In this document: in pieces, positions 533 to 47,574 of the stretch
Layout: every line of letters starts with the position of its first letter
How positions within the stretch are numbered: position 1 is the stretch's first letter
IMG/VR virus record: IMGVR_UViG_2706795462_000001
DNA: 64,000 nucleotides
Direction: 5' to 3' (one strand)
Source: a virus
Taxonomy: Duplodnaviria; Heunggongvirae; Uroviricota; Caudoviricetes; Herelleviridae
Program-made: the position numbers and the translations under genes
The notes under the pieces: model-generated
Seen by the model: only the letters and a program-made list of their open reading frames with translations
Told to the model about the DNA's origin: nothing
The model's database searches: none

Positions 533-1116
533 ATGGAGTATGAAAAAATGATTAAAGAGATAATGATAAACTCTAAAGAAATGTCATTAGAAGATAAAAA
601 ACATTTGTAAGAAGTTTAGCTACACAAGAAACAGACAGAGTAAAAAGAAACTATTGTAAAGATAAAAATATTAAGTTAATAGAAATAGATGCAAGAAAAA
701 CATCTTTATACTATATCTTAAATAGTATAAATTATACAGAGCTACTTAGCATACTAGAGATAAGAGAAGAAAATATTAGAGAACTACTTTATAAGTATAG
801 ATTAACGGAATCAGATAATAACATAATAAAAGAATTTAATAAATGCAGAGTATATAATGAGACAGCAAGAATGTTAGGTATAGATAATTACAGAGTAAGA
901 AGTACAATAGAAAAATATGGATTAGAATATAAGTTACTATCTAAAGAGAAAAAAGCTATTAAATGTACTACGGTAAATAAAATTTTTAATAGTATACAAG
1001 AAGCTAAAGATTGGTGTGGATTAACTTCTAATGGTTTAGAGAAAGTATTATCAGGTGAGAGGAAATATGCAGGTAAGTATAAAGGACAATATTTAGAATG
1101 GGAATATGTTGACTAA
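533..1116 (+). CDS. DNA-binding protein with homing-endonuclease-type C-terminal region, interrupted by 1-nt frameshift in A6 run at 593-598
   Basis: RBS AAGGAG then ATG 533; MEYEKMIKEIMINSKEMSLEDKK stops at 607. Frame of ORF 871..1116 is open upstream to 601 (TFVRSLATQETDRVKRNY...). One extra A at 593-598 would join the two. C-terminus FNSIQEAKDW..GLTSNGLEKVLSGERKYAGKYKGQYLEWEYV resembles homing-endonuclease DNA-binding tails; no GIY-YIG/HNH motif seen. Confidence 0.4.
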
Positions 1117-1578
1117 TGAATCAGATATACCTAGAGAATAATATTCTAGAACCTAGGAAAACTTTTATGTGCCCGTCTCGTTCAATCACTCACTACCGAC
1201 TTCCCTAACTATGTATTCTATAGTTATAATATTCATTTATTATACAATACTTAAACTATAGTATTGTAACCTTAATCTATACTGAAGCGGTATTAATCTA
1301 TTGTTATTATATAATAATCTTATATAATGGCGGTATAATCTAGGTTATTACATTAGAATCATTCTAATCTAGAATTTTAATCTTTAGACCCTAGGAAAAG
1401 TGGTACTAAAATATAGAACCCTATAGGTATGGGATTCTTATTTTTAAAATTACTAAAAAGTATTAGGTTTTCCCTAGGGTAAAGTTTTAATGTACCTAAA
1501 ATCGTAAGTAGCTCCTTATCATTTAGGTCTGTTTAATTGAGAATATTAGAAGATATCCGCTTCAATTACAATTAAAGG

Positions 1579-1607
1579 TTGACAACTATGAAGCGGTATG
1601 TTATACT
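1579..1607 (+). promoter_or_regulatory. sigma-A-type promoter TTGACA-N17-TATACT (Chi heptamer in spacer)
   Basis: Hexamers read directly. Confidence 0.45.
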
Positions 1608-1718
1608 TAGTATTGTAGGGGTGGTTCCCTACAGACCTAGACTATGGTCGTGATTTTGGTTTGCATATTAGTGTCATTCATAACCTCTATTCCAGTAGGG
1701 GTTATTTTTATTTAAGTG

Positions 1719-1747
1719 TTGACATACTCTAAGTAGTATGGTATGAT
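1719..1747 (+). promoter_or_regulatory. sigma-A-type promoter TTGACA-N17-TATGAT upstream of gene 1762
   Basis: Hexamers read directly. Confidence 0.5.
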
Positions 1748-1761
1748 TAGTATATAAGGAG

Positions 1762-2067
1762 ATGAATAATATGATTGATATATACTTAGGGGAAAACTAT
1801 AATACTGATTACTTATCTACTATTATGAATATTATAAAGACTTCCGCTTCAAGAGAGTTAAGTTATGGGTTTAATAATAAAGAAGCGGATGTAAATATAG
1901 AGGATATGAAGTATGAAGGTGATGTTCTGCATGTATATGGTACGATGTCTATGGATTATCCAGGCTGTATTATTATATGTATTACTAGAGATGAGACTAA
2001 GGTTATACATGGTGGTAACTTTCTAACAGGTACAGGTCTTAGTCAAGAAGTTAGAGAAAAATTCTAG
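1762..2067 (+). CDS. hypothetical early protein, tandem paralog family A (member 1)
   Basis: RBS TAAGGAGATGA; N-terminus MIDIYLGENY..TSASRELSYGFN shared with 4 downstream paralogs. Confidence 0.65.
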   Translation: MNNMIDIYLGENYNTDYLSTIMNIIKTSASRELSYGFNNKEADVNIEDMKYEGDVLHVYGTMSMDYPGCIIICITRDETKVIHGGNFLTGTGLSQEVREKF

Positions 2068-2078
2068 GGGGAGTTATT

Positions 2079-2249
2079 ATGATTATACCATTAATTATAT
2101 TCATGATGACCTTCGGTACATTTGCATTCAGTTATGTTGCACATGATGCATACAAAGTAGATGAAAAAGGTATCATGTATGCTATGGTAGTTGGTATTGT
2201 AGTTATAAATGGGATTGGTTTAGAAATGATAATTGTAGAATGTTTATAA
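2079..2249 (+). CDS. small hydrophobic membrane peptide (53 aa)
   Basis: RBS AGGGGGAG then ATG; MIIPLIIFMMTFGTFAF.. with two hydrophobic segments. Confidence 0.4.
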   Translation: MIIPLIIFMMTFGTFAFSYVAHDAYKVDEKGIMYAMVVGIVVINGIGLEMIIVECL

Positions 2250-2262
2250 AGGAGGTAGTAAA

Positions 2263-2448
2263 ATGATAGGTCAAATTATACTATTAGCTATTGTTAGTAT
2301 AGTTACAATAGGTTGTGTAGGATTATTTTTCTATGAGACGTTCAAGAGTATTAAGTATGATGCTAATGATAAAATCTTTATGATTACTGGGAGTATATTA
2401 ATGTTAGTTATTATCGTTAGTGGTGCATTAGCTATACTTGGCATTTAG
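2263..2448 (+). CDS. small membrane protein (61 aa)
   Basis: RBS AAGGAGGTAG then ATG; two TM-like segments. Confidence 0.5.
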   Translation: MIGQIILLAIVSIVTIGCVGLFFYETFKSIKYDANDKIFMITGSILMLVIIVSGALAILGI

Positions 2449-2716
2449 AGCTCATTTAAGAAGCGGTTAAGTAGTTCATGATAAATTGGTCTAGAAATAT
2501 ATGACCGCTTCTCTATGGAAGGCTGAGAGGGTTTAGAATTGAAAGGAGAGATATAATGGCTATATTTTTTAGTATTTTATTATTGATTAACATATACTTA
2601 ATATACTATGAATGTACTTCAGTTACGTTTGATTGGTGTGCACTGCTTATTTACGTATGCTCATTATGCTCTTGTATTTATTTAATAGTATATTTTGTAT
2701 AAAAGGAGGAGATATA

Positions 2717-3031
2717 ATGCAAGCAACTATATACTGTGCTAATAGGTATAGTAAAAATACATTAAAGAGTCTTTTAGAAAAATTAGAAGCGGAGAATAGA
2801 AACTTAACATATAGTACTGACATATCAGATATGGAGGAAGTGGATGTTATTGTACAACACACTGACTTATCTTTTGCAGAGTTAATGGATTCTTGTGATA
2901 GAGTAAGTAAAGGGTCTGACCGCTTCCAAGTATTTGTAGGTAATCACGCAGGGTATTATATAAACGGTGATTTATATATTAACGAAGTAGGTAAGTTTAT
3001 TGTACCTAGGAAAACGAATATGATGATGTAA
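2717..3031 (+). CDS. hypothetical early protein, paralog family A (member 2)
   Basis: Start moved to ATG 2717 after RBS AAAGGAGGAG; MQATIYCANRY..NRNLTYSTD aligns with the family. Confidence 0.6.
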   Translation: MQATIYCANRYSKNTLKSLLEKLEAENRNLTYSTDISDMEEVDVIVQHTDLSFAELMDSCDRVSKGSDRFQVFVGNHAGYYINGDLYINEVGKFIVPRKTNMMM

Positions 3032-3043
3032 GGAGGAAATATA

Positions 3044-3334
3044 ATGATTCATATATTTGTAAAAGAGGATTATAATAAAGAAACATTAAGGAGTTTACTT
3101 GAATATATTAATGATACTGTAGGTAGGGAATTAACTTATGGTATTAATACAGACTATGATAAGGATGTAGTGATTGAAACCGATGACCCTATAGATGAGG
3201 AGAATACGATTGATTTATCAAATCTTCCTCACTTTAAAGATGACTTATGTATTCTTATAGAAGAATTATACTGTAAGGCATTTGTTAATGGGGAACCTAT
3301 TATTATACGTAAGTATGTAGAGGGGATGTTATAA
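3044..3334 (+). CDS. hypothetical early protein, paralog family A (member 3)
   Basis: RBS AAGGAGGAAAT; MIHIFVKEDY..GRELTYGIN. Confidence 0.65.
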   Translation: MIHIFVKEDYNKETLRSLLEYINDTVGRELTYGINTDYDKDVVIETDDPIDEENTIDLSNLPHFKDDLCILIEELYCKAFVNGEPIIIRKYVEGML

Positions 3335-3621
3335 TGATTATAATATTTTTAACTGAAAAATATGATGCCAAGGCTTTAAAGAAAGTATTAGAACATATTG
3401 ATAATTGTAGTAGCAGAGGTCTTAGCTATTTAATGGGAAAAGGAGAAGCGGATGTATGTATAGAGAAGAATGTATTCAGAGAAAGAGATGATGTAAGGAT
3501 TAACTCAAACATTATTGATGAAGGTAAACTTTGTATACTCATAAATAAAAATGGTTTAGAATGTAGTTACTATAGAGGTGTATCATGTAATATTGGTGCC
3601 TTTGTAAAGGAGAGATTATAA
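3334..3621 (+). CDS. hypothetical early protein, paralog family A (member 4)
   Basis: MIIIFLTEKY..SSRGLSYLMGKGEADV; start overlaps preceding stop. Confidence 0.65.
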   Translation: MIIIFLTEKYDAKALKKVLEHIDNCSSRGLSYLMGKGEADVCIEKNVFRERDDVRINSNIIDEGKLCILINKNGLECSYYRGVSCNIGAFVKERL

Positions 3622-3914
3622 TGATAGAAATATATCTCAGTGAAAACTATGATAGGGATTTACTCAAAGCAGAATTAAAATGGATTAAAGAGACCGCTTC
3701 AAGAGAACTAACTTATGATGTTAATAGAAGCCCAGGATTAGATGTACATATTAGTCCTTTTAGATATACCAAGGATGAGGTTGAAGAAATGAGCTTACAT
3801 CCTCAGTTTGAAGATGATGTATGTGTATTTATAGCTGAAACATGGATACATGAGTATCGTAATGGTAAATCAATAGGTGTAGATAGTATGGAAGAATATG
3901 TAAAGGAGATGTAA
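3621..3914 (+). CDS. hypothetical early protein, paralog family A (member 5)
   Basis: MIEIYLSENY..TASRELTYDVN; RBS AAAGGAGAG. Confidence 0.65.
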   Translation: MIEIYLSENYDRDLLKAELKWIKETASRELTYDVNRSPGLDVHISPFRYTKDEVEEMSLHPQFEDDVCVFIAETWIHEYRNGKSIGVDSMEEYVKEM

Positions 3915-3917
3915 TTA

Positions 3918-4166
3918 ATGGTAGAAACTTATTATACAGTATATCATAAGAATAGTATGAAAACTATTAAGGATTACTTAAGTAGAAGTGATTTAATTGA
4001 CTTCTTATATAAGACTTGGCATAAGGATATAAGTAATATATACCCAACAGATTATACTACGTATGAAACAAAATTCTGTATAGACATAGATGTAGTTAGA
4101 TTAATTGAAGCGGTTAATGAAGAAGGTGTATTACTTATTAATGAAGGTAATATTGTAGAGTGGTAG
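3918..4166 (+). CDS. hypothetical early protein, paralog family B (member 1)
   Basis: RBS AAGGAGATG; ..TYYTVYHKNS.. motif shared with next two genes. Confidence 0.6.
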   Translation: MVETYYTVYHKNSMKTIKDYLSRSDLIDFLYKTWHKDISNIYPTDYTTYETKFCIDIDVVRLIEAVNEEGVLLINEGNIVEW

Positions 4167-4178
4167 GAGGAGATAAAT

Positions 4179-4418
4179 ATGAGTCAGTTTTTCACGTATA
4201 CAGTGTATCATACAGAAACAGCTAAAGTAGTAGCTAAGAATTTGTTTGATGCATCATTGGTGCACCTTATTAACAAGATGATAGAGAAAGATATAGTTAA
4301 GGATATTAATTTAGAATATTACATGAATACACGTGGTGTAGTTATAGATATGAGTAGACTACTGGATGATATAGAATCACAGGGTGTATTTCTATTCAAA
4401 CGTAAGCTACATGGATAA
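4179..4418 (+). CDS. hypothetical early protein, paralog family B (member 2)
   Basis: RBS GGAGGAG; MSQFFTYTVYHTETAKVVA..; about 40 percent identity by eye to 4530..4769. Confidence 0.65.
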   Translation: MSQFFTYTVYHTETAKVVAKNLFDASLVHLINKMIEKDIVKDINLEYYMNTRGVVIDMSRLLDDIESQGVFLFKRKLHG

Positions 4419-4451
4419 TAGGTTAGACCCTAAAAAGTTTGAGATACAATA

Positions 4452-4497
4452 GGATGCTTAGGATAATAGGATAAAAATAACTTAGGATGCTTAGGAT
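4452..4497 (+). repeat. Direct repeat GGATGCTTAGGAT x2 (plus extra TAGGAT copies) in the intergenic region
   Basis: Copies at 4452-4464 and 4485-4497. Confidence 0.7.
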
Positions 4498-4529
4498 GAA
4501 ATACGATACGATAGGGAGGTTAAGTTAAG

Positions 4530-4769
4530 ATGCAAGAGTTAATAACTTATATAATTTACCATAAAGAATCAGGTAAAGTAGTAGCACAGGATTTAAGTGA
4601 ATTAGAAACTATTGAACTTATATACAAAATGATAGAAGAGGGATTAGTAAAAGATATAGAATTATCTAACTACCGTCTTTTTAGTGGGAATATAGATATA
4701 CTTAACTTATTAGTAGACATACGTAAACAAGGTATATTTGATTTTGAACATACTTGGCACACAAGATAA
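4530..4769 (+). CDS. hypothetical early protein, paralog family B (member 3)
   Basis: RBS GGGAGG; MQELITYIIYHKESGKVVA.. paralog of 4179..4418. Confidence 0.65.
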   Translation: MQELITYIIYHKESGKVVAQDLSELETIELIYKMIEEGLVKDIELSNYRLFSGNIDILNLLVDIRKQGIFDFEHTWHTR

Positions 4770-4780
4770 GGAGGGATAGG

Positions 4781-5125
4781 ATGATAGTTATATATTCAGA
4801 TGAGTCTAGGGATTACTTAAGAGATGAGTTCTTACCTTGGCTTAATGATAGAGATAGATATTTAAAATATTATAAGAATGAGTTACCTGAAGATATAGAC
4901 TCTTCTTATGTTGTATCAGTTGTATACTGTAGGGATATGGAAGGTCTTATGAATAGGAAAGATATTCTTATTGGTAATAGTTATAGAGAGCCTGTAGCTG
5001 TATTAGGTGTTCCTGAATTTTTTGGTAACTATTCTAATTATTACTATTATAAAGGAGAGCATATAAGTAAGCATGACCTAGGAGAGATAATTAGGTTAAA
5101 GGCTTGGCAACGTAATTTTGACTAA
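4781..5125 (+). CDS. hypothetical early protein
   Basis: RBS AAGGAGGG 4768-4775 then ATG 4781 (MIVIYSDESRDY..); ORF-track start 4754 lacks an RBS. Confidence 0.55.
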   Translation: MIVIYSDESRDYLRDEFLPWLNDRDRYLKYYKNELPEDIDSSYVVSVVYCRDMEGLMNRKDILIGNSYREPVAVLGVPEFFGNYSNYYYYKGEHISKHDLGEIIRLKAWQRNFD

Positions 5126-5204
5126 GTAGCTCTCTCTAATTTCACTAAGTAGCTCCCTAGGAATTGCCTAAGTAGCTCGGTGTGATTTTACCCTAAGTAG
5201 CTCC
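5123..5204 (+). repeat. Four direct copies of CTAAGTAGCTC at 22-25-bp spacing (iteron-like)
   Basis: Starts 5123, 5145, 5168, 5193. Confidence 0.8.
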
Positions 5205-5325
5205 CTCTGTTTTCTATTAGTTTATTTTAACCGCTTCACGTGTCTATATATAGACAATCGGAATAATAGCAGACCGCAAAAAGAAATACACTAGGATATT
5301 ATTCCCAGTGTATTGTATAATTTTT

Positions 5326-5664
5326 TTATAGAATATTTATAACATTGTATTCAAATTCATTTACTTCATGTTGTGATTTAATTAAATTTTTAATTAATCC
5401 GTTTTGTGTTTTATAGTCTTTTACTAGTTTTTCATTTTCTATAATTAAATTATTAAATTCTTCTTTTGTTGTATCCTCATCTACATAAAATTTACTTTCA
5501 TATATTTCATAATATTTTTTATCTGTTCCGTTATCAATATCATCTGATATTTGATAATTTTTGAATACAATTTCTTTTGTTTCTAATTCATTTACTAATA
5601 ATTGTGATTTTGCATATTGTAATACGTCTTCATTGTCCCACATTGGAATATAGTTTATTTTCAT
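5326..5664 (-). CDS. hypothetical protein (only minus-strand gene inside the plus-strand early block)
   Basis: 112-aa ORF; flanked by the CTAAGTAGCTC iterons (5123-5204) and promoter 5875-5903. Confidence 0.5.
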   Translation of the reverse strand: MKINYIPMWDNEDVLQYAKSQLLVNELETKEIVFKNYQISDDIDNGTDKKYYEIYESKFYVDEDTTKEEFNNLIIENEKLVKDYKTQNGLIKNLIKSQHEVNEFEYNVINIL

Positions 5665-5874
5665 TTAAATCAAATCCTTTTCTATAATTTTTTTATATAA
5701 TATTTGTAGAAGCGGTTGGGGTTTGTCCCTTGCCTTACTACACTTAATATATTACAGTATAGTTATTCAGAAGTCAATACTTTTGAGTAACTTTTTTTTA
5801 AATTCTTTTTTCTTCTATATAATAGTAGTTTTTAGCCCTAAAAAAAGTTTTTTAAAAGAATTTACATTTTCTTA

Positions 5875-5903
5875 TTGACTTATTAATCATATGATAGTAA
5901 TAT
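5875..5903 (+). promoter_or_regulatory. early promoter TTGACT-N17-TAATAT with upstream A6GTTTTTTAAAA tract
   Basis: Same architecture as the other promoters in this family. Confidence 0.55.
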
Positions 5904-5976
5904 AAAGGTACAGCAAGAGAACAGCAACAAGGTATTAGAATTATATAAAAAAATTATTTAATTGGAGATGATTTAA

Positions 5977-6285
5977 ATGGATGTAAAAGAAATTGCAGAC
6001 ACTATAATGGAGTTGTGGCAAATGGACGGATACAGATGTACAGAACCGCCATTATATGAAAGCACATTAAACCACACACGCACATATACGGCTTTAATCG
6101 TAAGCATTAAGGGAAACTATGACACTGTTCAAATGTTCCGTAAAACGCCTATAATGAGCATGAGAGGGCAAGCGCAACCGGCTAGCATGTTAGTAAATGT
6201 AATTGATGACGTGATTATAATCGTATATGAAAATACGGTTTACGGGGTACAGAATAAAGAAATAAAATTTATTGAAGAAATTTAA
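5977..6285 (+). CDS. hypothetical early protein
   Basis: Promoter 5875-5903 and RBS TGGAGATGA upstream; 102 aa. Confidence 0.6.
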   Translation: MDVKEIADTIMELWQMDGYRCTEPPLYESTLNHTRTYTALIVSIKGNYDTVQMFRKTPIMSMRGQAQPASMLVNVIDDVIIIVYENTVYGVQNKEIKFIEEI

Positions 6286-6384
6286 AAATAGGGGTTGCAA
6301 TACCCCTTAAGATGTAGTAATATAATAGATGTAAGGGATAGCAACACACCTTAAAAAACTTTTTAAAAAAGTTAAAGAAAAGTG

Positions 6385-6413
6385 TTGACACCTTACAAGA
6401 TACATGTTAATAT
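6385..6413 (+). promoter_or_regulatory. early promoter TTGACA-N17-TAATAT with upstream AAAAAACTTTTTAAAAAAG
   Basis: Family member. Confidence 0.6.
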
Positions 6414-6490
6414 TAGTATAGAAGTTAAGACAAGCCACATAGCAAATAACGAAATTAAATAAAAAAATTATAGAATAGGATTTGATTATT

Positions 6491-6778
6491 ATGACAAACA
6501 AAAATTACTTATACGAAGAAACTCACACAGTACAAGGGCAAGACATTACGGCTTTCAGAATTCCAAATGACACAAACGGCAACCCACGTTATGTAGTGCA
6601 TTTCATGGATTTAGACATTAAACTAGCAGACTATGACAACATCAATAAGCTATACGGATTTAAAAAATATACTGCTAAATGGTTTGGCGGTGGTGTAGTA
6701 TTCCAAAGCTATAATATTGAAGATACATTAAATTACGCACTATCTAATGTTAAAGAAATAGAAGCGGTTAAGAATTAA
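6491..6778 (+). CDS. hypothetical early protein
   Basis: Conserved cassette AGGATTTGATTATTATG; ATG 6491 (MTNKNYLYEE..); promoter 6385-6413. Confidence 0.6.
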   Translation: MTNKNYLYEETHTVQGQDITAFRIPNDTNGNPRYVVHFMDLDIKLADYDNINKLYGFKKYTAKWFGGGVVFQSYNIEDTLNYALSNVKEIEAVKN

Positions 6779-6827
6779 AACCGCTTCTGAATTAAATAAA
6801 AAAATTATATAAAAAGGATATGATATT

Positions 6828-7019
6828 ATGAAATTTAAAATAGAAAAAAATAACAGTGATATAAAAACTTTATGGAATTTAGCTAAAAATGGATATATGA
6901 GTTATCAAACTGTACACAATATATTTAAAAATGAATCAGATGAATTTATTATATTTAACAGTAAACAAACTTATAATAAATTTATGGAATTAAGATATAA
7001 TAGAAGTGCAATTCAATAG
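6828..7019 (+). CDS. hypothetical early protein (63 aa)
   Basis: RBS AAAGGATATG; followed by terminator 7039-7075. Confidence 0.5.
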   Translation: MKFKIEKNNSDIKTLWNLAKNGYMSYQTVHNIFKNESDEFIIFNSKQTYNKFMELRYNRSAIQ

Positions 7020-7038
7020 TATAAAAAAGTTATATAAT

Positions 7039-7075
7039 TCCCTAGGATTAAATTCCTAGGGATTTTTATTTGTTT
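7039..7075 (+). terminator. rho-independent terminator
   Basis: TCCCTAGGA-ttaaat-TCCTAGGGA hairpin plus T-run. Confidence 0.6.
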
Positions 7076-7126
7076 TAATTTATATAAAAAAATTATTTAA
7101 TAAATAAATTAGTGTAAAATTGACTG

Positions 7127-7156
7127 TTGACAAGGTTGTATTTTTTATGGTATAAT
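7127..7156 (+). promoter_or_regulatory. promoter TTGACA-N18-TGgTATAAT (extended -10); no protein gene downstream
   Basis: Consensus hexamers; downstream is a repeated non-coding cassette. Confidence 0.5.
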
Positions 7157-7215
7157 GAAGTGAAGACCTTTTTTAGTATAAAAAAATTATTATATAAAAA
7201 ATTTATATTAAATGG
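7127..7215 (+). repeat. Non-coding cassette (promoter + GAAGTGAAGACCTTTTTTAGTATAAAAAAATTATTATATAAAAAA), copy 1
   Basis: Near-duplicate of 8730-8820. Confidence 0.6.
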
Positions 7216-7536
7216 TTTTAAAACCGCTCTTTCTCCCCACCTTGTCATATTTATAGTGGAAGGGTTAGGCGGGTTACCACTGTTTTACTTTCTATATATA
7301 GTATACTATGAATAATGGTAATTGTCAACACCTTTCAGAAACTTTTTTTACTTTCTTTTATTATTATATAAAAAAATTATACATATTTTAGGGCTCCACT
7401 TCCATTATATAATAATTCGGTCTTAATGTCAATACTTTTATTCAAAAAAGTTTTTTAAATTAATTTCAACAAATCTATTGACTTATGTTTTTTTCTATAG
7501 TAATATATAGGTATACCAACAAGGGAGGCAATACAA

Positions 7537-7695
7537 ATGCTAAAATTTAAATGGAAAAACAAAACAATCAAATCAACTCAAAAAACGGATAACATTATTT
7601 TACTTCTTATAGGTGGTTTAGTTGCAACAGTCACGCCTAAACTTGTAAACTGGTTTTTACTACTACAAGATAATATAAATATTTTTTTAAGATAA
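7537..7695 (+). CDS. small membrane peptide (52 aa)
   Basis: RBS AAGGGAGG then ATG 7537; MLKFKWKNKTIKSTQKTDNIILLLIGGLVATV.. Confidence 0.4.
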   Translation: MLKFKWKNKTIKSTQKTDNIILLLIGGLVATVTPKLVNWFLLLQDNINIFLR

Positions 7696-7698
7696 CTA

Positions 7699-7727
7699 TT
7701 GACAACTTAGAAACAACGTGTTAATAT
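7699..7727 (+). promoter_or_regulatory. early promoter TTGACA-N17-TAATAT
   Basis: Family member. Confidence 0.55.
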
Positions 7728-7794
7728 TAAGATACAAGGTAAGGGAAGCGGTTGACCGCTTCCGACCTAAATAAAAAAAAGTTTAAAAAAACTA

Positions 7795-7823
7795 TTGACA
7801 GTCACTTGAAACCATGATATTAT
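7795..7823 (+). promoter_or_regulatory. early promoter TTGACA-N17-TATTAT with upstream A8GTTTAAAAAA
   Basis: Family member; gene 7863 follows. Confidence 0.6.
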
Positions 7824-7862
7824 TAAGATAACAAAAAACAAACAGAAAAGGAATTGATTATA

Positions 7863-8186
7863 ATGAAATTTATCAAAACTATCGAAAACTTATTAGAAAA
7901 AGCAGAAAACAAAGGGCAAGCAATTTTAAACGGTCGTTACTTTGACGGGTATAGCAAAGGTGAGCTTGAGGAAAAATATGCAATTGAAATTGATGGCAAC
8001 AAATTGATTATGCGTCACTGGGGTACACAAACAATTGAGATTGACTTAAGCATAAATGAGATTGTTTCATATTACGGTGAAAGCAATTCAGACCGTGACA
8101 GTTTAAACACACTTGTATATTGCTTAGGAATTGCGCCAAACTTTAGATACTTACCAAGCAAAAACTTATTCATTTACGAAAATTAA
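7863..8186 (+). CDS. hypothetical early protein
   Basis: Promoter 7795-7823; cassette AAAGGAATTGATTATAATG; ATG 7863 (MKFIKTIENL..). Confidence 0.65.
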   Translation: MKFIKTIENLLEKAENKGQAILNGRYFDGYSKGELEEKYAIEIDGNKLIMRHWGTQTIEIDLSINEIVSYYGESNSDRDSLNTLVYCLGIAPNFRYLPSKNLFIYEN

Positions 8187-8199
8187 TTAAATAAAGGGC

Positions 8200-8228
8200 T
8201 TGACTTCCAAGCCCTACCATGTTATTAT
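8200..8228 (+). promoter_or_regulatory. early promoter TTGACT-N17-TATTAT; -35 inside hairpin 8195-8215
   Basis: AGGGCTTG/CAAGCCCT stem encloses the -35. Confidence 0.6.
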
Positions 8229-8285
8229 TAAATTGTAAGGTAATCAAGCACAACGACAAAATAAACTGAAAAGGAATTGATGAAA

Positions 8286-8666
8286 ATGTTCAAATTACAA
8301 AATAAAGTGGAAATTATCGTACCTAAGGAAGATAACAACGGCGTTGAGATTGCAGACAAACGTATTAAAGAATATGTAAATAGCATCACAATGGAAGCGG
8401 GCGGTTGTACTATTACAGAAATTAAAGGGCAATGGTACTCAGAAGATGAAAAACGTATAATGGAAGATAACAACTTAAATCTTGAGTGGTATTATCTGCA
8501 AGACAGTGCAAAATTCATGACAGTTGAATTAAAAGGTATTGTAAGACGTTTAATTGAAGTTTACGGACAAGAGGCTATCAGTATCAAAGTTAATGGCACA
8601 TTGTACATTGTAGACCAATCAGACATTGAAGAATTACACACAACATTATTAAATATCATGAAATAA
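8286..8666 (+). CDS. hypothetical early protein
   Basis: Promoter 8200-8228; cassette AAAGGAATTGATGAAAATG (start 8280 or 8286); terminator 8679-8715 downstream. Confidence 0.65.
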   Translation: MFKLQNKVEIIVPKEDNNGVEIADKRIKEYVNSITMEAGGCTITEIKGQWYSEDEKRIMEDNNLNLEWYYLQDSAKFMTVELKGIVRRLIEVYGQEAISIKVNGTLYIVDQSDIEELHTTLLNIMK

Positions 8667-8678
8667 AAAATTTATATA

Positions 8679-8715
8679 AACCGCTTCGTATTAAATTCTT
8701 GAAGCGGTATTTTTG
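8679..8715 (+). terminator. rho-independent terminator whose stem arms are Chi heptamers (AACCGCTTC / GAAGCGGT)
   Basis: 9-bp stem, 13-nt loop, then ATTTTTGT. Confidence 0.6.
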
Positions 8716-8729
8716 TGTAAAATTTATGC

Positions 8730-8758
8730 TTGACAAATGTATTAAAAAATGAGATAAT
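8730..8758 (+). promoter_or_regulatory. promoter TTGACA-N17-GATAAT followed by a repeated non-coding cassette
   Basis: Hexamers read directly. Confidence 0.5.
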
Positions 8759-8820
8759 AGAGTGACGACTTTTTTTAGTATAAAAATAATATTATATAAA
8801 AAAGTTATAGAGTTTTTAGG
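8730..8820 (+). repeat. Non-coding cassette, copy 2 (promoter + GAGTGACGACTTTTTTTAGTATAAAAATAATATTATATAAAAAAG)
   Basis: Near-duplicate of 7127-7215; TAGGGCTCCANNTCCATTATAT element also repeats at 7388 and 8815. Confidence 0.6.
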
Positions 8821-8988
8821 GCTCCAAGTCCATTATATCAATTTTGCTACTAGTTGTCAATACTTTCTTTTTTTATATAATAATTTAATTATCTTAAAGA
8901 TACCGTCCACCTCCATTATCTCAAATTTTGCCCCTAAAGTCAAGAACTTTCTTTCAAATAATTTATTTAAAAAAGTTTACAAAAAGGG

Positions 8989-9017
8989 TTGACTTATTTT
9001 GTACTATGGTGTAATAT
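8989..9017 (+). promoter_or_regulatory. early promoter TTGACT-N17-TAATAT
   Basis: Family member. Confidence 0.5.
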
Positions 9018-9084
9018 ATAAAGTGTAGTAAGGAAGCGGAGGAAATAACCTAAAAAAAGAATTTAAAAAACTTTTAAAAAGGTG

Positions 9085-9113
9085 TTGACAAACTTCCAAA
9101 TACATGATAATAT
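9085..9113 (+). promoter_or_regulatory. early promoter TTGACA-N17-TAATAT with upstream A7GAATTTAAAAAACTTTTAAAAAG
   Basis: Family member; gene 9158 follows. Confidence 0.6.
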
Positions 9114-9157
9114 TAAGATAGTTAGAAAAACAAAAAAACGAAAAGGAATTGATAATT

Positions 9158-9379
9158 ATGAACAGATTAGAAATAGTAAAAGATACGGCAATGGAATATA
9201 TCCTTATGATGGATAATAGCGTTATGGACGGCGTTATGACACAAGAGGAATACAACGAAGCGGTTAGCTTTGAAAAGGTGTATGACTACACTCTATCAGA
9301 AGCAAATCAAGAATGTAAATTCTTAGGTGGTAAGGTTTTAACTTTCCTAGTACATGAAGCAATCGAAGAATACGCATAA
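9158..9379 (+). CDS. hypothetical early protein (73 aa)
   Basis: Promoter 9085-9113; cassette AAAGGAATTGATAATTATG; MNRLEIVKDT.. Confidence 0.6.
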   Translation: MNRLEIVKDTAMEYILMMDNSVMDGVMTQEEYNEAVSFEKVYDYTLSEANQECKFLGGKVLTFLVHEAIEEYA

Positions 9380-9398
9380 AAAAACTTAATAAAAGGGG

Positions 9399-9427
9399 TT
9401 GACATTCAACCCCTACCATGTTAATAT
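9399..9427 (+). promoter_or_regulatory. early promoter TTGACA-N17-TAATAT; -35 inside hairpin 9394-9414
   Basis: AGGGGTTGA/TCAACCCCT 9-bp stem. Confidence 0.6.
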
Positions 9428-9459
9428 TAATATATACCAAATGAGAGGAATTGATAATT

Positions 9460-9597
9460 ATGAGATACGAAATTGTAACGTTAGTTAATCAAGAATTGTT
9501 TATGTATGCAACATTCAACAAGCAGGAAGCAGAAGCCAAATATCAAGAATGGTGTGACTTATATGGTCAAGAAAATGTAAGCATGGAAAAAAATTAA
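9460..9597 (+). CDS. hypothetical early peptide (45 aa)
   Basis: Promoter 9399-9427; cassette GAGGAATTGATAATTATG; MRYEIVTLVNQ.. Confidence 0.5.
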   Translation: MRYEIVTLVNQELFMYATFNKQEAEAKYQEWCDLYGQENVSMEKN

Positions 9598-9606
9598 AAT
9601 AAGCTG

Positions 9607-9635
9607 TTGACAAACTAACCGCTTCATGATAATAT
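9607..9635 (+). promoter_or_regulatory. early promoter TTGACA-N17-TAATAT (Chi heptamer in spacer)
   Basis: Family member. Confidence 0.55.
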
Positions 9636-9667
9636 TAAACTATACTAAAGAAAAGGAAATGATTACA

Positions 9668-9832
9668 ATGACAAAAACAATCAAACAATTAGAAAGCCAA
9701 TTAGAGAGTCTAGAAAGAAAATCAGATGAGGAATTAGCAAACGGATACTATGACAGATTTGAAAGAACTTGTGCACAGATTAGAGAATTAGACCTACAAA
9801 TCGAATTAAAAAAGAACTCAGAAACTGTTTAA
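9668..9832 (+). CDS. hypothetical early protein, coiled-coil (54 aa)
   Basis: Promoter 9607-9635 excludes the 9626 start; cassette AAAGGAAATGATTACAATG; MTKTIKQLESQLESLER.. Confidence 0.55.
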   Translation: MTKTIKQLESQLESLERKSDEELANGYYDRFERTCAQIRELDLQIELKKNSETV

Positions 9833-9850
9833 AAAAATCTAAATAAGGGG

Positions 9851-9879
9851 TTGACACTTAACCCCTTAGATGTTATTAT
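9851..9879 (+). promoter_or_regulatory. early promoter TTGACA-N17-TATTAT; -35 inside hairpin 9845-9867
   Basis: AAGGGGTT/AACCCCTT stem. Confidence 0.6.
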
Positions 9880-9911
9880 TAATATATACTAAAGAAAAGG
9901 AATTGATACAA

Positions 9912-10148
9912 ATGAAATTAATCAATAGAGATAATGAAATCGTAATTAGCATAGCAACACTTGAGAGCGTAAAACAAGCCCTAATTTGGGAGTACATCGA
10001 CCACTTAGATAATAACATCCTAGACAGTAAAATTTACGACCAAGAAGCGGTTGTGGTGACTTCTGACACTCTACAGTCAATCAAATTTGCGGACACTATG
10101 GAAGAACTAGAAGAATATGTAAACGACATCGGTTGGAAATTAATTTAA
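9912..10148 (+). CDS. hypothetical early protein (78 aa)
   Basis: Promoter 9851-9879; cassette AAAGGAATTGATACAAATG; MKLINRDNEIV.. Confidence 0.6.
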   Translation: MKLINRDNEIVISIATLESVKQALIWEYIDHLDNNILDSKIYDQEAVVVTSDTLQSIKFADTMEELEEYVNDIGWKLI

Positions 10149-10156
10149 AAAAGGTA

Positions 10157-10185
10157 TTGACACCCTAGCATATAGATGGTAATAT
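10157..10185 (+). promoter_or_regulatory. early promoter TTGACA-N17-TAATAT
   Basis: Family member; acidic-protein gene 10228 follows. Confidence 0.6.
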
Positions 10186-10227
10186 AAGAGTATAGAAAAA
10201 ATAAAAAAAGAAAAGGATTTGATTATT

Positions 10228-10698
10228 ATGACAAATACAATACAAGCATTTTTACAAGGACAAGAAGCAAGCACAGTTAAGGACGTAGCAACTCATGGAG
10301 TACAAAGCGGAGCAATTGGCAAATTAATCTACACATCAGACATAGTAAACTTCTTTGATAGATACGAGCAGGACATTGAAGCCGTCATCACTGAATACAT
10401 TGAAGAGGTTACGGGACAACAATATTATGACTTATTGAACTATGAGCTTATGAGAGACCTCGAGAATTATGCAAATGTAGAATTTGAAGACGAAGACGAA
10501 TATAATAACATTCAATTTGACCTAGCAGAAAACATTGCTTCTGATGAGGTTGAAGGATTTGAAGACATGGACGAAGCAGACCAGGCGGAAGCAATCTATG
10601 AGGCTATGGATGATGTTGAATTAGAACTACAAGAAACGGACAAGGTTCAATATGTTAATCTAGCGGTTGAGATTGTAGCGCAAAGAATGGCACTATAG
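10228..10698 (+). CDS. highly acidic early protein (candidate DNA-mimic anti-restriction / anti-defence factor)
   Basis: Promoter 10157-10185; cassette AAAGGATTTGATTATTATG; C-terminal half dominated by D/E (..EFEDEDEYNNIQFDLAENIASDEVEGFEDMDEADQAEAIYEAMDDVELELQ..). Confidence 0.6.
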   Translation: MTNTIQAFLQGQEASTVKDVATHGVQSGAIGKLIYTSDIVNFFDRYEQDIEAVITEYIEEVTGQQYYDLLNYELMRDLENYANVEFEDEDEYNNIQFDLAENIASDEVEGFEDMDEADQAEAIYEAMDDVELELQETDKVQYVNLAVEIVAQRMAL

Positions 10699-10770
10699 GA
10701 AGCACACAGACACACACACACAGAGAAGCTTAACCGCTTCTCTAATACAATTAATCAGGAGATGTTGAAG

Positions 10771-11034
10771 ATGAAAATTAACCAATTAAACAATGCTAAA
10801 AAACTATACGAAACATTATTTGCTATCGAGTTTGATAGTACTATCGAGGAAGATTGGACAATAGATAATGACTCTCTAGAAGCTAAACTATTCTTGGAGT
10901 TATCAGATGAGGGCAAAAAGGTTTATGCAATGAGTCACGCTAAGCAATGGGCAAATATTGTTATGGATATGGAAGAAGAGGAATATAGAAGCTATTACGG
11001 AAATGATTTAGATTATATTTTAGAGGAGATGTAA
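10771..11034 (+). CDS. hypothetical early protein (start 10762 or 10771)
   Basis: RBS CAGGAG 10755-10760; acidic C-terminus. Confidence 0.55.
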   Translation: MKINQLNNAKKLYETLFAIEFDSTIEEDWTIDNDSLEAKLFLELSDEGKKVYAMSHAKQWANIVMDMEEEEYRSYYGNDLDYILEEM

Positions 11035-11037
11035 AAC

Positions 11038-11211
11038 ATGAATACAAGAAGGGTAAACAAAGCGTTAAACGAAGCGGTTCGATTATTAGATGAGCAAATA
11101 GCAGACACTCAAAAGACTATGCAGGAGTTGAATAAACAACTCGAGAAGCAAATAAAGGCTAAGCAAGAGCTAATGATATTAGTTGATGTTATGACTGGTG
11201 ATGATGAGTAA
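11038..11211 (+). CDS. small coiled-coil early protein (57 aa)
   Basis: RBS GGAGGAGATG overlaps previous stop; MNTRRVNKALNEAVRLLDEQIADTQK.. Confidence 0.45.
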   Translation: MNTRRVNKALNEAVRLLDEQIADTQKTMQELNKQLEKQIKAKQELMILVDVMTGDDE

Positions 11212-11480
11212 TGAGCATTAGAGAGGTTCATAATGTCGTTAAGAGTGCAAAGAGCAAACTCCTGCAGGAACATAATAATATTAATAATGTAATCATAGAT
11301 GACTACATCACAGAAGAGCTACACAGACGCACACAGGGAAGCGGAACAATACAGATGAACAATAACACCGCTTCATATAGTAATGGCTCATATGGTAGCT
11401 TAGAAGAGCTTAGAGAAGCTTATGACCTATCTTCATTATCTACTGAGGAGATTAAAGAACTAATACAAACATTTGTTTAA
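11211..11480 (+). CDS. hypothetical early protein
   Basis: ATG overlaps previous stop (TAATGA); 89 aa. Confidence 0.5.
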   Translation: MSIREVHNVVKSAKSKLLQEHNNINNVIIDDYITEELHRRTQGSGTIQMNNNTASYSNGSYGSLEELREAYDLSSLSTEEIKELIQTFV

Positions 11481-11498
11481 ATTATTTTATCAAAACGC

Positions 11499-11529
11499 TT
11501 TACAATCTTTTAATTTGTATGATATAATG
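11499..11529 (+). promoter_or_regulatory. promoter TTTACA-N19-TATAAT (TG-extended)
   Basis: Upstream of gene 11565. Confidence 0.4.
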
Positions 11530-11564
11530 AACTTAACAAATTAAAAGAAAAGGAAATGATGAAC

Positions 11565-11744
11565 ATGACAAACTTATTAGAACAGGAACAATTAGAAAAA
11601 GACGTAAAAGATATTATTTGGGTATTAGACAGAATGATTGCTAGAGGAGAACAATACACTGAAGCTTACGATATTTTAGTTAACAAATTAGAAAGACAAG
11701 AAAAAAGAATCGTAGAAATAAAAAAACAAAACGGAATATTTTAA
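11565..11744 (+). CDS. hypothetical early protein, last gene of the plus-strand early unit
   Basis: Promoter 11499-11529; cassette AAAGGAAATGATGAACATG; terminator 11754-11783 follows. Confidence 0.55.
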   Translation: MTNLLEQEQLEKDVKDIIWVLDRMIARGEQYTEAYDILVNKLERQEKRIVEIKKQNGIF

Positions 11745-11753
11745 ATAACAAAT

Positions 11754-11783
11754 AGAGGGAATAAAATCCCTCTTTTATTTTTA
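11754..11783 (+). terminator. rho-independent terminator ending the plus-strand early block
   Basis: AGAGGGA-ataaaa-TCCCTCT plus T10. Confidence 0.7.
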
Positions 11784-11916
11784 TCTTATTATATAATTTT
11801 TTTTATATTATACGGGGGCAGGGGTAAAATGCCACTCAATGGGGGTGGGTCTATATACCCCTATGGTCTACCCAGGTACTTATTTTTTGGGGAAAATTAT
11901 GAAAATAAATATTTAA

Positions 11917-12013
11917 AAGTCAACACATAAAATATAGAAAGTAAGTCAACATCCCTTATAATAAGTCAACAATTTATAGTACAAATATAAAGCCTCTAAA
12001 TATAAAGTCAACA
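11917..12013 (+). repeat. Four direct copies of AAGTCAACA
   Basis: Starts 11917, 11943, 11963, 12005, just after G-rich segment 11813-11878. Confidence 0.75.
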
Positions 12014-12025
12014 TATCTAAAATAA

Positions 12026-12050
12026 GAAGAGAGGTATATCCTCTCTTCTC
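12026..12050. terminator. bidirectional hairpin between the convergent plus early block and minus block
   Basis: AGAAGAGAGG-tatat-CCTCTCTTCT. Confidence 0.45.
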
Positions 12051-12054
12051 TTAA

Positions 12055-12345
12055 CTATATAAGTACGCTTCTATTATTTAGTTCCTGTTCTATTCTATTT
12101 AAATGCTCCCAAACCTCAATCCAATTTACTCTTGAATCATCATAATAAAGGTGGAAATCTTGAGGGTTTTCTAAATACGCTTCTAGTTCATCATAGTATA
12201 GAACATCAAAAGCTGTGTCATCAAGACCTATTTGAATCTTTAGTATATCTTTATATCCTAATTGTTTATTACCGCAATAAGCTGTATCTTCTAACCGCTT
12301 CTCTAGTTTATTAAATAGTGTTTGTATACCTTGTAGTTCATTCAT
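12055..12345 (-). CDS. hypothetical protein
   Basis: 96-aa ORF ending at the bidirectional hairpin 12026-12050. Confidence 0.5.
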   Translation of the reverse strand: MNELQGIQTLFNKLEKRLEDTAYCGNKQLGYKDILKIQIGLDDTAFDVLYYDELEAYLENPQDFHLYYDDSRVNWIEVWEHLNRIEQELNNRSVLI

Positions 12346-12485
12346 AATGTATGACCTCCTAATTGATTATATACTTAGTATAAAGGATAGGTGTTAGAAT
12401 GTCAACCTTTATATATAAAAAAAAGAGAAAGAATATTATTCTTCCTCTAAGGTATTACTAATAACTTCTAATTCATGAATAGTAA

Positions 12486-12683
12486 TCATATCCATCTATC
12501 GAATCCTCTTGGGTCTCCTTTAATGAACTCTTGTTCTCCTCTATGAGTTATACTTTCTTTATATCCTTCTTCTTTAATACGTTTAATTAAGTTCTCCTTA
12601 TTTGTGTATATCTCATCTTCCCTGAAATGGAAATTATCTTCATAGGGTTCACAATTATCATGTTCTACTTGATATAGTTTCAT
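12486..12683 (-). CDS. hypothetical protein
   Basis: Start set at MKLYQVEHD.. after RBS AGGAGGA; ORF-track N-extension overlaps upstream gene. Confidence 0.5.
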   Translation of the reverse strand: MKLYQVEHDNCEPYEDNFHFREDEIYTNKENLIKRIKEEGYKESITHRGEQEFIKGDPRGFDRWI

Positions 12684-46096: not shown

Positions 46097-46897
46097 TTGA
46101 CAGATAAATTATTTTATGGTACAATTAGTAATGAAGAAATTAATAAAAGTGTATTGAATTTGTTATTAGGTGAGGAATTATCTTTAGATTATGTTTCTAA
46201 AAATAGTGATACCTTAGATGTTAAATATGAACATGTTTATAAATCTCTAGGATTCGATAATTTCTTTGATTGTTTTTTATATGCTAATAGGGAACCTGAA
46301 ATAGTCCATAAAGGTGGAGATAAAAATCTTGGTGGGCTAAATAAGGTTAAACGTACTGTTATTCGTAATGGTAAAGAAATGGAAATGACAGTTTACGAAG
46401 ATGGTAATAAAGAAAATGATAGTAAAGAAAAACAAGAAGGCAAAGAAGAAGTTAGTAGAAGTGCAGTAGGAGCAAGAGCTATTTCTAATGGTGAAGAAGG
46501 AAAGGTAAACCCTAAAAAGGTAGCAAACTCATTATCTAGTTTAAGTAAAAAAGGTGTCGATGTATCACATGTTAGTACAAACTCGTCATTGTATAAAGAG
46601 TTTGTTGATGATAATGGGGATACATTAGGAATTACATCTTTTAAAAGAACTGAAAATGATATAATATTAGAATCTTATGCAAGTTCACCCGATTCAGATG
46701 GTGTAGGGGCTAGAGCTATTATGGAATTATTACGTTTAAGTATTAAGGAAAATAAAAATGCAGTTGTGTATGACATAGAATTGCCTGAAGCTATAGAGTA
46801 TTTAAAAACTTTAGGATTTAAACCTAATAAAGATGGATACATCTTAAGAAAAAAAGATGTAAAACAATTCTTAGGTGATTATAGTGATTTTATTTAG
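46097..46897 (+). CDS. hypothetical protein (TTG start after terL)
   Basis: RBS AGAGGTGA then TTG 46097; ORF-track 46004 start lies inside terL. Confidence 0.5.
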   Translation: MTDKLFYGTISNEEINKSVLNLLLGEELSLDYVSKNSDTLDVKYEHVYKSLGFDNFFDCFLYANREPEIVHKGGDKNLGGLNKVKRTVIRNGKEMEMTVYEDGNKENDSKEKQEGKEEVSRSAVGARAISNGEEGKVNPKKVANSLSSLSKKGVDVSHVSTNSSLYKEFVDDNGDTLGITSFKRTENDIILESYASSPDSDGVGARAIMELLRLSIKENKNAVVYDIELPEAIEYLKTLGFKPNKDGYILRKKDVKQFLGDYSDFI

Positions 46898-47057
46898 CAC
46901 TGTAGTCATCTATTCTATTGTATTTATTCTCTATATTATATTAAAAACAATTTATGTAAAGTCTAATATGAATAGAATAGATAACACAACTGAATTATTA
47001 AAAATATTACAGGAAGATATTGAAGGAAAGATAAAAAAGGAAGGAAGAAATAAATGA
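46875..47057 (+). CDS. small membrane protein (GTG start)
   Basis: 60 aa, one TM helix; overlaps neighbours by a few nt. Confidence 0.35.
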   Translation: MIIVILFSTVVIYSIVFILYIILKTIYVKSNMNRIDNTTELLKILQEDIEGKIKKEGRNK

Positions 47058-47533: not shown

Positions 47534-47574
47534 AAGGGAAGAATTATGAGACTATATAAAATGAGGTATCATAA

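Follow-up and report, generated by a model that had tools for sequence, protein, structure and literature searches.

Arrays of host Chi sites near the ends of phage genomes have already been described, with phage P1 and, among lambdoid phages, LLS and MD8 as the closest precedents for the locus treated here. The locus is the long terminal repeat (LTR) of Staphylococcus phage P108. It lies in a 64-kb stretch of DNA, called the window below, in which the heptamer GAAGCGG is packed into a single block. This word is the Chi site of the host enzyme RexAB (AddAB). An array of this kind appears to be new for the Herelleviridae, the family of P108, since no such description was found in the literature searched.

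In P1, 50 Chi sites are spread over 94.8 kb. They follow a gradient, occupy both strands and are concentrated in and near the terminal repeats, and circularisation of the phage genome needs RecBCD and RecA. P1 and its relatives P7 and D6 resemble P108 in carrying host Chi far above chance, on both strands and concentrated at the packaged ends or terminal direct repeats. They also share with it the proposed use of a host helicase-nuclease and RecA for recombination between terminal repeats after injection. The two systems differ in lifestyle and in the way their ends are made. P1 is temperate, is packaged by the headful from pac, has variable ends and depends on RecBCD with the 8-mer GCTGGTGG, whereas P108 is strictly lytic and has fixed ends, an exact 10.7-kb LTR and a host with AddAB/RexAB, its sites being divided into 29 within the LTR and 2 outside. 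P1 is known to depend on the host enzyme; for P108 such dependence is proposed from the sequence.

LLS, a phage of E. coli, and MD8, a phage of P. aeruginosa, likewise have many host Chi sites near a genome end, which have been read as recruiting the host recombination enzyme, and the growth of LLS is enhanced by RecBCD (Genome Res 2025, PMC12315714). Their sites share one orientation (20 of 23 and 32 of 32), toward a single accessible cos end, whereas both orientations are present in P108 (17 and 12). LLS and MD8 are also without recombination modules, while the annotation of P108 lists a RecA-like protein and a repair exonuclease, and they belong to another phage family with another end structure and host enzyme. 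P108 fits the trait of a Chi-enriched phage, in that its Chi density exceeds both chance and the density in the host and is concentrated at the LTR (29 of 31 sites). At the level of annotation, it does not follow the rule of an absent recombination module seen in the LLS class.

The window is identical (100% by megablast) to positions 76808-140807 of P108 (KM216423.1), a Kayvirus, and forms the final 64 kb of that genome. The full genome of 140,807 bp (140.8 kb) was rebuilt by joining the window to positions 1-76807 (76.8 kb) of the same record. The record is permuted, and the terminal repeat therefore sits internally as one copy, which KM216423.1 leaves unannotated. This single collapsed copy occupies window positions 1156..11872 (+ strand) and is 10,717 bp long. 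Its edges were transferred from the relatives SYL, ESa1 and K, not taken from the physical ends of P108 itself. SYL is 99.8% identical to P108, has the same host strain and is annotated with a repeat_region of 10,724 bp; for ESa1, PhageTerm predicts a repeat of 10,437 bp; and the terminal repeat of K measures 8,486 bp. The ends in SYL and K map exactly onto P108, and those in ESa1 to within 1 nucleotide (nt).

The left edge of the LTR, at 1156, has the sequence GGAAAACTTTTA. On the right, the LTRs of SYL and K end at 11872, inside the word CCCAGGTACTTA that spans the boundary (11871..11882, + strand). An inverted copy of this word with up to three mismatches was sought near the left boundary at 1156, and none was found. 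Between the two edges lies an early gene block of about 28 small open reading frames, nearly all on the + strand, with 67% of the sequence coding. The gene adjoining the LTR encodes a YopX protein that is widespread by tblastn, and hence of no use for locating LTRs in other genera.

GAAGCGG or its complement CCGCTTC has 31 exact matches in the window and also 31 in the whole genome, and a scan of both strands of the remaining 76.8 kb gave 0 copies. Thirty of the matches fall within 1284-12301, 17 on the + strand and 13 on the - strand. The original prediction, made from the letters of the window, had given exactly this count for about 11 kb, together with roughly one copy in the rest of the window, which is the one at 18573. 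Measured against the mapped repeat, 29 copies are inside the LTR (17 + and 12 -) and two are outside, one 423 nt past the right edge and the other the lone copy at 18573, which is the chance expectation for the other 130 kb.

When Markov models of order 0-2 are trained on the LTR, they predict 0.16-0.35 copies there, or about 0.2, and the observed count exceeds this more than 100-fold. After dinucleotide shuffling the window contains a mean of 0.70 heptamers (maximum 2), against the 31 observed. The objection that a similar density might occur elsewhere or in shuffled sequence is answered by these figures and by the count of two copies in the 130 kb outside the LTR. An unbiased k-mer scan of the LTR against the rest of the genome returned GAAGCGG as the most LTR-enriched 7-mer (29 versus 2, p ~1e-51). 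A second scan, blind to the LTR, returned it as the most spatially clustered 7-mer genome-wide, with 28 of 31 copies in 10 kb. Within the LTR the density is about 1 per 370 bp and shows no gradient with position.

The Chi-dense block coincides with the terminal repeat as mapped through SYL, ESa1 (PhageTerm) and K, as had been proposed. The further proposal that the motif delimits the repeat is borne out with a precision of about 130 nt at the left edge and about 420-500 nt at the right edge. The extent first given, 1.2-12.3 kb, needs correction, as the LTR runs from 1156 to 11872 and the last site of the block (12295) lies 423 nt outside it.

The enriched unit is the exact heptamer alone. Counts in the LTR fall from 32 for AGCGG to 30 for AAGCGG and 29 for GAAGCGG, which gives the word sharp edges. 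The 21 one-mismatch variants together occur 10 times in the LTR against 7.4 expected, and a degenerate motif family was rejected because they are not enriched. The base 5' of the heptamer is unconstrained. The base 3' of it is T in 21 of the 29 LTR sites (TT in 13), A in 7 and G in 1, a +1 preference that suggests an extended context GAAGCGGT in Staphylococcus.

Two papers, both citing Halpern 2007, identify GAAGCGG as the Chi site of S. aureus RexAB/AddAB, so that the identification made in the original prediction is supported, the identity being taken here from these secondary citations. According to a 2024 review, the word recognised is GAAGCGG for S. aureus RexAB and AGCGG for B. subtilis AddAB. 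Subramaniam and Smith, describing Halpern 2007, report that GAAGCGG lets high-molecular-weight plasmid DNA accumulate in S. aureus. They also count 335 copies per 2.82-Mb S. aureus genome, 90% of them co-oriented with replication and 93% in open reading frames. In S. aureus hosts, CRISPR spacers are acquired from free DNA ends in an AddAB-dependent manner, in regions bounded by chi sites, and injected phage DNA is named as a substrate for this acquisition.

The chromosomal sites and those of the P108 LTR share the identical word, exact-match specificity and over-representation, and the last two properties hold for the chromosomal AGCGG of B. subtilis as well. In arrangement they differ. In contrast to the largely co-oriented, genic and sparse sites of the S. 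aureus chromosome, those of the LTR are bidirectional, half intergenic and far denser.

The reading proposed here, with a probability of about 0.72, is that the P108 LTR is a host-Chi array in both orientations through which exposed genome ends are spared and recombined by the host RexAB/AddAB. With 29 exact copies of the host signal in the LTR, the phage probably uses that signal to save and recombine these ends. The likeliest function is thus that of a cis-acting, bidirectional Chi array at both genome ends.

In this model, linear virion DNA would enter with the same LTR at each end. RexAB/AddAB would load on either exposed end and would unwind and degrade the DNA inward until, from about 400-550 bp onward, it met correctly oriented Chi. 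A Chi on the top strand acts on enzyme molecules arriving from the right. AddAB has the same polarity, reading Chi on the 3'-ended strand. Entry from the left would therefore bring the enzyme to the 12 minus-strand sites of the LTR, the first of them 402 nt in, and then to the spill-over site at 12295, whose orientation would suit an enzyme that had come in at the left and passed through the entire LTR. Entry from the right would bring it to the 17 plus-strand sites, of which the nearest (11338) is 528 nt from the right LTR end. Because the same LTR sits at both ends, both orientations are needed, and both are present, as the original prediction had emphasised.

Next, recognition of Chi on the 3'-ended strand would switch the enzyme from degrading both strands to sparing that strand, and the product would be a RecA-coated 3' tail of LTR sequence. 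Three benefits could follow. The early host-takeover genes in the LTR would survive before any phage protein is made. Strand invasion by the tail could target the second LTR copy, either of its own genome or of a sister genome, and give circles or concatemers and recombination-primed replication. Finally, fewer degradation products would be available for CRISPR spacer capture. We infer that RexAB reaches the ends and responds to the sites, and likewise which of the three benefits is selected. Recombination between LTRs is at least as plausible a benefit as protection alone, and the two together rank as the most likely, ahead of reduced spacer capture.

RecBCD recognises Chi in well below 100% of encounters, roughly a third. 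With recognition below 100% per encounter and a dozen or more sites per direction, escape past the repeat would therefore be rare (as an illustration, 0.7^13 is about 1%).

Evidence for selection on the heptamer can be provided by comparing the P108 LTR with those of K, ESa1 and Stab20. Chi positions carry mismatches in 14 of 504 cases, against 225 of 1964 in the flanks of 15 nt on either side (Fisher 6e-11), which means that divergence among Kayviruses is about fourfold lower in the heptamer than in its flanks. As the three comparisons are related by descent, the figure is only an indication of purifying selection.

The cluster also recurs in other phages. In the Kayviruses, the 8,486-bp LTR of K has 20 copies, with 0 in the next 41.5 kb; the 10,437-bp LTR of ESa1 has 24, with 1 just outside; and the 10,814-bp LTR of Stab20 has 25, a count that covers the LTR only. 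The annotated 9,201-bp LTR of Twort (Twortvirus, host S. hyicus) contains 15 copies, which make the heptamer its top LTR 7-mer, and 0 follow in the next 6.8 kb. In Remus (Silviavirus), whose 7,351-bp LTR was verified by comparison of both genome ends, there are 7 copies in the repeat, 3 within 500 nt of it and 0 elsewhere in the approximately 99 kb read. In phiIPLA-C1C (Sepunavirus, host S. epidermidis), a 9-kb block of Tre genes, counted in place of a mapped LTR, has 13 copies, with 1 in the nearby BofL and 0 in about 54 kb more. An LTR-bound cluster is thus found in staphylococcal Twortvirinae across four genera whose LTRs have little shared sequence, and the orientations are mixed in all seven staphylococcal phages.

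One to three spill-over sites accompany the cluster in each staphylococcal genus in which they were seen (P108, Remus and phiIPLA-C1C). The P108 site at 12295 is also present in SYL and ESa1 and absent from K. Those of Remus (7542, 7840 and 134481 of MW546076) lie a few hundred nt outside the LTR. That of phiIPLA-C1C (121196 of NC_028962) lies about 3.9 kb past the last site of the Tre block, a distance counted from the cluster and not from an LTR boundary. In P108 and phiIPLA-C1C they are oriented as expected for action on an enzyme that has passed through the entire repeat; in Remus the orientations are mixed.

A more distant parallel is the terminal redundancy of SPO1 (Spounavirinae, host B. 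subtilis; NC_011421.1), which is 13,185 bp long. It shares with P108 the family, a long exact terminal repeat with host-takeover genes, enrichment of the Chi word of its own host and a sharp drop at the repeat edge. AGCGG occurs there 46 times against 11.5 expected (p 1e-14) and is the top 5-mer (4-fold). The longer GAGCGG occurs 24 times against 1.7 expected (p 6e-20), is the top 6-mer (14.5-fold) and falls to zero at the repeat edge. SPO1 differs from P108 in that its 5-mer Chi makes the enrichment less extreme and in that its extended word is GAGCGG, not GAAGCGG. SPO1 DNA contains hydroxymethyluracil in place of thymine. AGCGG contains no T, and the recognised strand of SPO1 would therefore be unmodified. 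The same redundancy has a run of about 44 consecutive T at approximately 11398-11441, between genes 55 and 56, which dominated its A/T-homopolymer k-mer statistics.

Several observations weigh against a Chi array with this function. According to Subramaniam and Smith, direct interaction of RexAB with GAAGCGG and hotspot activity have not been shown. No experiment linking RexAB to Kayvirus infection, and no data on Kayviruses in rexAB or recA hosts, were found in the literature. Likewise, no paper was found that links Chi to Kayvirus, Twort-like phages or the SPO1 redundancy, in a search of the openly accessible literature; the suggestion that such an array had no earlier description for Kayvirus agrees with this result. 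Proteins might also cover the ends of virion DNA. The annotation of P108 includes a 'putative DNA repair protein' (RecA-like; 46694-47950 of KM216423.1) and a 'putative DNA repair exonuclease', and possession of its own RecA-like protein and exonuclease departs, at the annotation level, from the published rule for Chi-rich lambdoid phages, in which recombination genes are absent. As a test of host tracking SPO1 is only partly independent, because the Chi words of S. aureus and B. subtilis overlap (AGCGG). Finally, a simple Chi model does not require the seven close inverted pairs described below or the strong +1 T (21 of 29).

Other phages with terminal repeats also limit the generality of the trait. 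In Enterococcus phage phiEF24C, an unbiased cluster scan of 100 kb found only promoter-like and terminator-like words clustered. The short LTR (3.1 kb) of Listeria phage A511 has a weak GCGG excess and no sharp word. The 10.2-kb LTR of coliphage T5 holds two E. coli Chi only. A Chi array as a general trait of LTR phages was rejected on the evidence of T5, and its universality in the Herelleviridae on that of phiEF24C; the result for A511 points neither way.

A separate pattern was seen in phiEF24C (NC_009904.1). The 8-mer CTATTGAC has 16 of its 28 copies within 8 kb, at about 98,300-106,300, in a block of small genes before the strand switch. It consists of the -35 element TTGAC with a fixed upstream context, and its cluster probably marks an early promoter family. 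Clustering of a Chi-like word was not seen in this block.

The arrangement of the 30 sites in 1284-12301 bears on what else might have produced them. They are divided equally between coding and intergenic sequence (15 each) and lie on both strands. Among the coding sites, nine read in frame as GAA-GCG-Gnn (Glu-Ala-X), four are antisense and two are in other phases. The original prediction had placed coding copies in several frames. Some do lie in other phases, but 9 of the 11 sense-strand coding sites share the one Glu-Ala-X frame. The sites that it had placed in promoter spacers (1590, 9619) and in hairpin arms (6761/6781, 7745/7756, 8681/8701) are real, the three tight hairpins making up 3 of about 23 loci.

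A codon or dipeptide artefact was rejected, as no more than 9 of the 30 sites read in frame as Glu-Ala-X and synonymous spellings show no excess: GAAGCAG occurs 2 times in the LTR and 22 times in the rest of the genome. Terminator stems were rejected too. A consensus scan of 1000-12500 gave 13 terminator-like sites, none with a Chi stem, the stems being of the GGGG/CCCC type. Nor can the sites be put down to a longer dispersed repeat or to paralogy, since their flanks match one another only at the background level (a mean identity of 0.30 over 60 nt per site, and 0.30 at random positions). Only two site pairs lie in paralogous genes, with flank identity of 0.50-0.52. The earlier statement that paralogous genes are not sufficient is upheld by these figures.

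Neighbouring sites less than 50 nt apart form seven pairs, all inverted and none direct, where random placement gives 1.75 (P = 0.0009). The pairs are 1557/1590, 1844/1882, 2460/2505, 6761/6781, 7745/7756, 8681/8701 and 11338/11368, with 4-38 nt between the heptamers, and similar inverted pairs occur in Twort, phiIPLA-C1C and Remus. An inverted pair supplies both orientations at one spot; the Chi reading offers no further account of the pairing.

Such pairs would be natural if GAAGCGG were the binding site of a protein that is encoded by the phage (or is another host protein) and has no relation to AddAB, the identity of the word with Chi being coincidence or mimicry. The function served could be, for instance, that of an early-gene regulator, of a nucleoid-like protein that marks the LTR or of a packaging signal that defines or duplicates the repeat. 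Seven close inverted pairs against 1.75 expected could be dimer-binding sites, and the +1 T preference, the two sites in promoter spacers and the tight restriction of the motif to the LTR in every genus examined would suit such a protein. A conserved phage protein could also read the AGCGG that the staphylococcal and SPO1 words share. However, the spacing within the pairs (4-38 nt) has no fixed dimer geometry, most sites are solitary and many, in either orientation, lie within genes. Degenerate variants show no excess, an unusual feature in protein operators, and the upstream context differs between GAAGCGG in Staphylococcus phages and GAGCGG in SPO1. No DNA-binding family was recognised by Pfam among ten LTR proteins, of which only TreK, DUF7335 and DUF7222 were matched; no nuclease inhibitor was recognised among them either. 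In addition, the host Chi would come out by chance as the single top 7-mer in about 1 of 8,192 cases, counting strand-collapsed words. A binding site of this kind is accordingly judged unlikely.

An explanation closer to the preferred one accepts that the sites act via RexAB/AddAB and differs in the benefit selected, which would be immune evasion, with survival and recombination secondary. With Chi packed at its ends, injected DNA would yield as few degradation products as possible for spacer acquisition by Cas1-Cas2 and for guide loading of the pAgo type. The hotspots of spacer acquisition in S. aureus start at free ends, are AddAB-dependent and stop at chi, and the first correctly oriented site of P108 is only 402 or 528 nt from each end. 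Nevertheless, one or two sites per end would suffice for this purpose, yet 12-17 per direction are kept over 10 kb. CRISPR-Cas is rare in S. aureus. Such rarity would seem to make it a weak selective force for four genera and SPO1, and immune evasion as the main benefit is also improbable.

That the enrichment is a functionless by-product of terminator stems, a Glu-Ala habit of Tre proteins, paralogous cassettes or recent host DNA could be argued from the three tight hairpins with the word in both arms, the nine in-frame coding sites and the two paralogous site pairs, but is highly improbable and already largely refuted by the terminator, codon and flank results above, by a density of about 1 per 370 bp against the reported 335 copies per 2.82-Mb host genome, by conservation of the heptamer above its flanks and by recurrence of the cluster in non-homologous LTRs.

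A Chi array at the ends of P108 would have several implications. It would provide a concrete mechanism for the survival of linear DNA at entry and for terminal repeat recombination in Kayviruses. These phages (K, 812, ISP, Sb-1 and P108) are the main therapeutic phages against S. aureus. If the reading is true, the rexAB and recA status of the host and the LTR sequence would affect infection efficiency, concatemer formation and CRISPR adaptation. It would extend the idea of phage end-Chi from Gram-negative RecBCD (P1, LLS and MD8) to Gram-positive AddAB, and to strictly lytic phages with their own recombinases. In practical terms, the LTRs of staphylococcal Twortvirinae can be located from sequence alone within a few hundred bases. 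The array would also be natural in vivo evidence for GAAGCGG as a functional signal, and may reveal an extended Chi context, +1 T in Staphylococcus and -1 G in Bacillus.

A broader and more tentative generalisation, held to be possible though short of even odds, is that LTRs of Herelleviridae, in at least four staphylococcal Twortvirinae genera and SPO1, are protein-free cis devices that hijack AddAB-RecA despite the phages' own recombinases. If so, a bidirectional Chi array would spare the first-entering host-takeover genes from the host's main nuclease against linear DNA. It would then start strand invasion between LTRs, by which the genome becomes circular or concatemeric. The top LTR word would also read out the Chi of the host with its context (GAAGCGGT in Staphylococcus, GAGCGG in Bacillus), and could be used to predict Chi in those Firmicutes for which it has yet to be defined.

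Individual sites are as follows, with the strand in brackets. The first, at 1284..1290 (+), is intergenic and 129 nt from the left LTR end. Next come 1557..1563 (-), the intergenic site that is first to be met in the left-entry orientation, 402 nt from the end, and its inverted partner 1590..1596 (+), which lies in the 17-nt spacer of a promoter-like TTGACA-17-TATACT (1579-1607). The coding sequence (CDS) 1771-2067 contains an inverted pair made of an antisense site, 1844..1850 (-), and the in-frame 1882..1888 (+; GAA-GCG-G, Glu-Ala-Asp). An intergenic inverted pair follows at 2460..2466 (+) and 2505..2511 (-). CDS 2657-3031 has one site in frame, 2786..2792 (+; Glu-Ala-Glu), and one antisense, 2920..2926 (-). 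Three further genes have one each: 3445..3451 (+) in frame in CDS 3334-3621 (Glu-Ala-Asp), 3694..3700 (-) antisense in CDS 3621-3914 and 4107..4113 (+) in frame in CDS 3918-4166 (Glu-Ala-Val). The sites at 5231..5237 (-) and 5709..5715 (+) are intergenic.

The middle of the LTR contains the three hairpins. At the end of the TreK gene (6491-6778), 6761..6767 (+) is in frame (Glu-Ala-Val) and forms the left arm of the hairpin GAAGCGGTT...AACCGCTTC, the right arm being the intergenic 6781..6787 (-). The intergenic sites 7745..7751 (+) and 7756..7762 (-) are the two arms of the hairpin GGAAGCGGT-TGA-CCGCTTCC. After an in-frame site at 8394..8400 (+; Glu-Ala-Gly) in CDS 8286-8666, the intergenic 8681..8687 (-) and 8701..8707 (+) form an inverted pair with a 13-nt loop, followed by a T-rich stretch.

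The remaining sites begin with the intergenic 9033..9039 (+) and the in-frame 9257..9263 (+; Glu-Ala-Val) in CDS 9158-9379. The spacer of a promoter-like TTGACA-17-TAATAT (9607-9635) holds 9619..9625 (-). Two more sites are in frame as Glu-Ala-Val, 10044..10050 (+) in CDS 9912-10148 and 11071..11077 (+) in CDS 11038-11211, with the intergenic 10734..10740 (-) between them. The last pair of the LTR is in CDS 11211-11480 and consists of 11338..11344 (+), sense in phase 1, and the antisense 11368..11374 (-). The spill-over site, 12295..12301 (-), lies in the first minus-strand gene (12055-12345).

Small open reading frames annotated in SYL are missed or shortened in KM216423.1, for example at window positions 7537-7695, 7863-8186, 9912-10148 and 5977-6285. 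In window 1000-12500, near-consensus sigma-70-type promoters are dense, several of them TTGACA-17-TATAAT with TG extensions. Promoter-like sites there number 103 against 72 in shuffles, and terminator-like sites 13 against 2.6. This density fits an early block that may be transcribed by the host RNA polymerase.

On the scale of the genome, the build-up of host Chi in P108 contrasts with a total avoidance of two other words, both palindromic. GATC occurs 0 times in the whole genome, against about 383 expected by composition, and GGNCC also occurs 0 times. Both are words that we take to be S. aureus restriction sites, and their avoidance is presumably a known trait of Kayviruses. Finally, the GC and AT skews of the window change sign at about 12 kb, where the LTR gives way to the minus-strand left arm, and at about 41 kb, where the plus-strand structural genes begin, and thus follow the direction of transcription.

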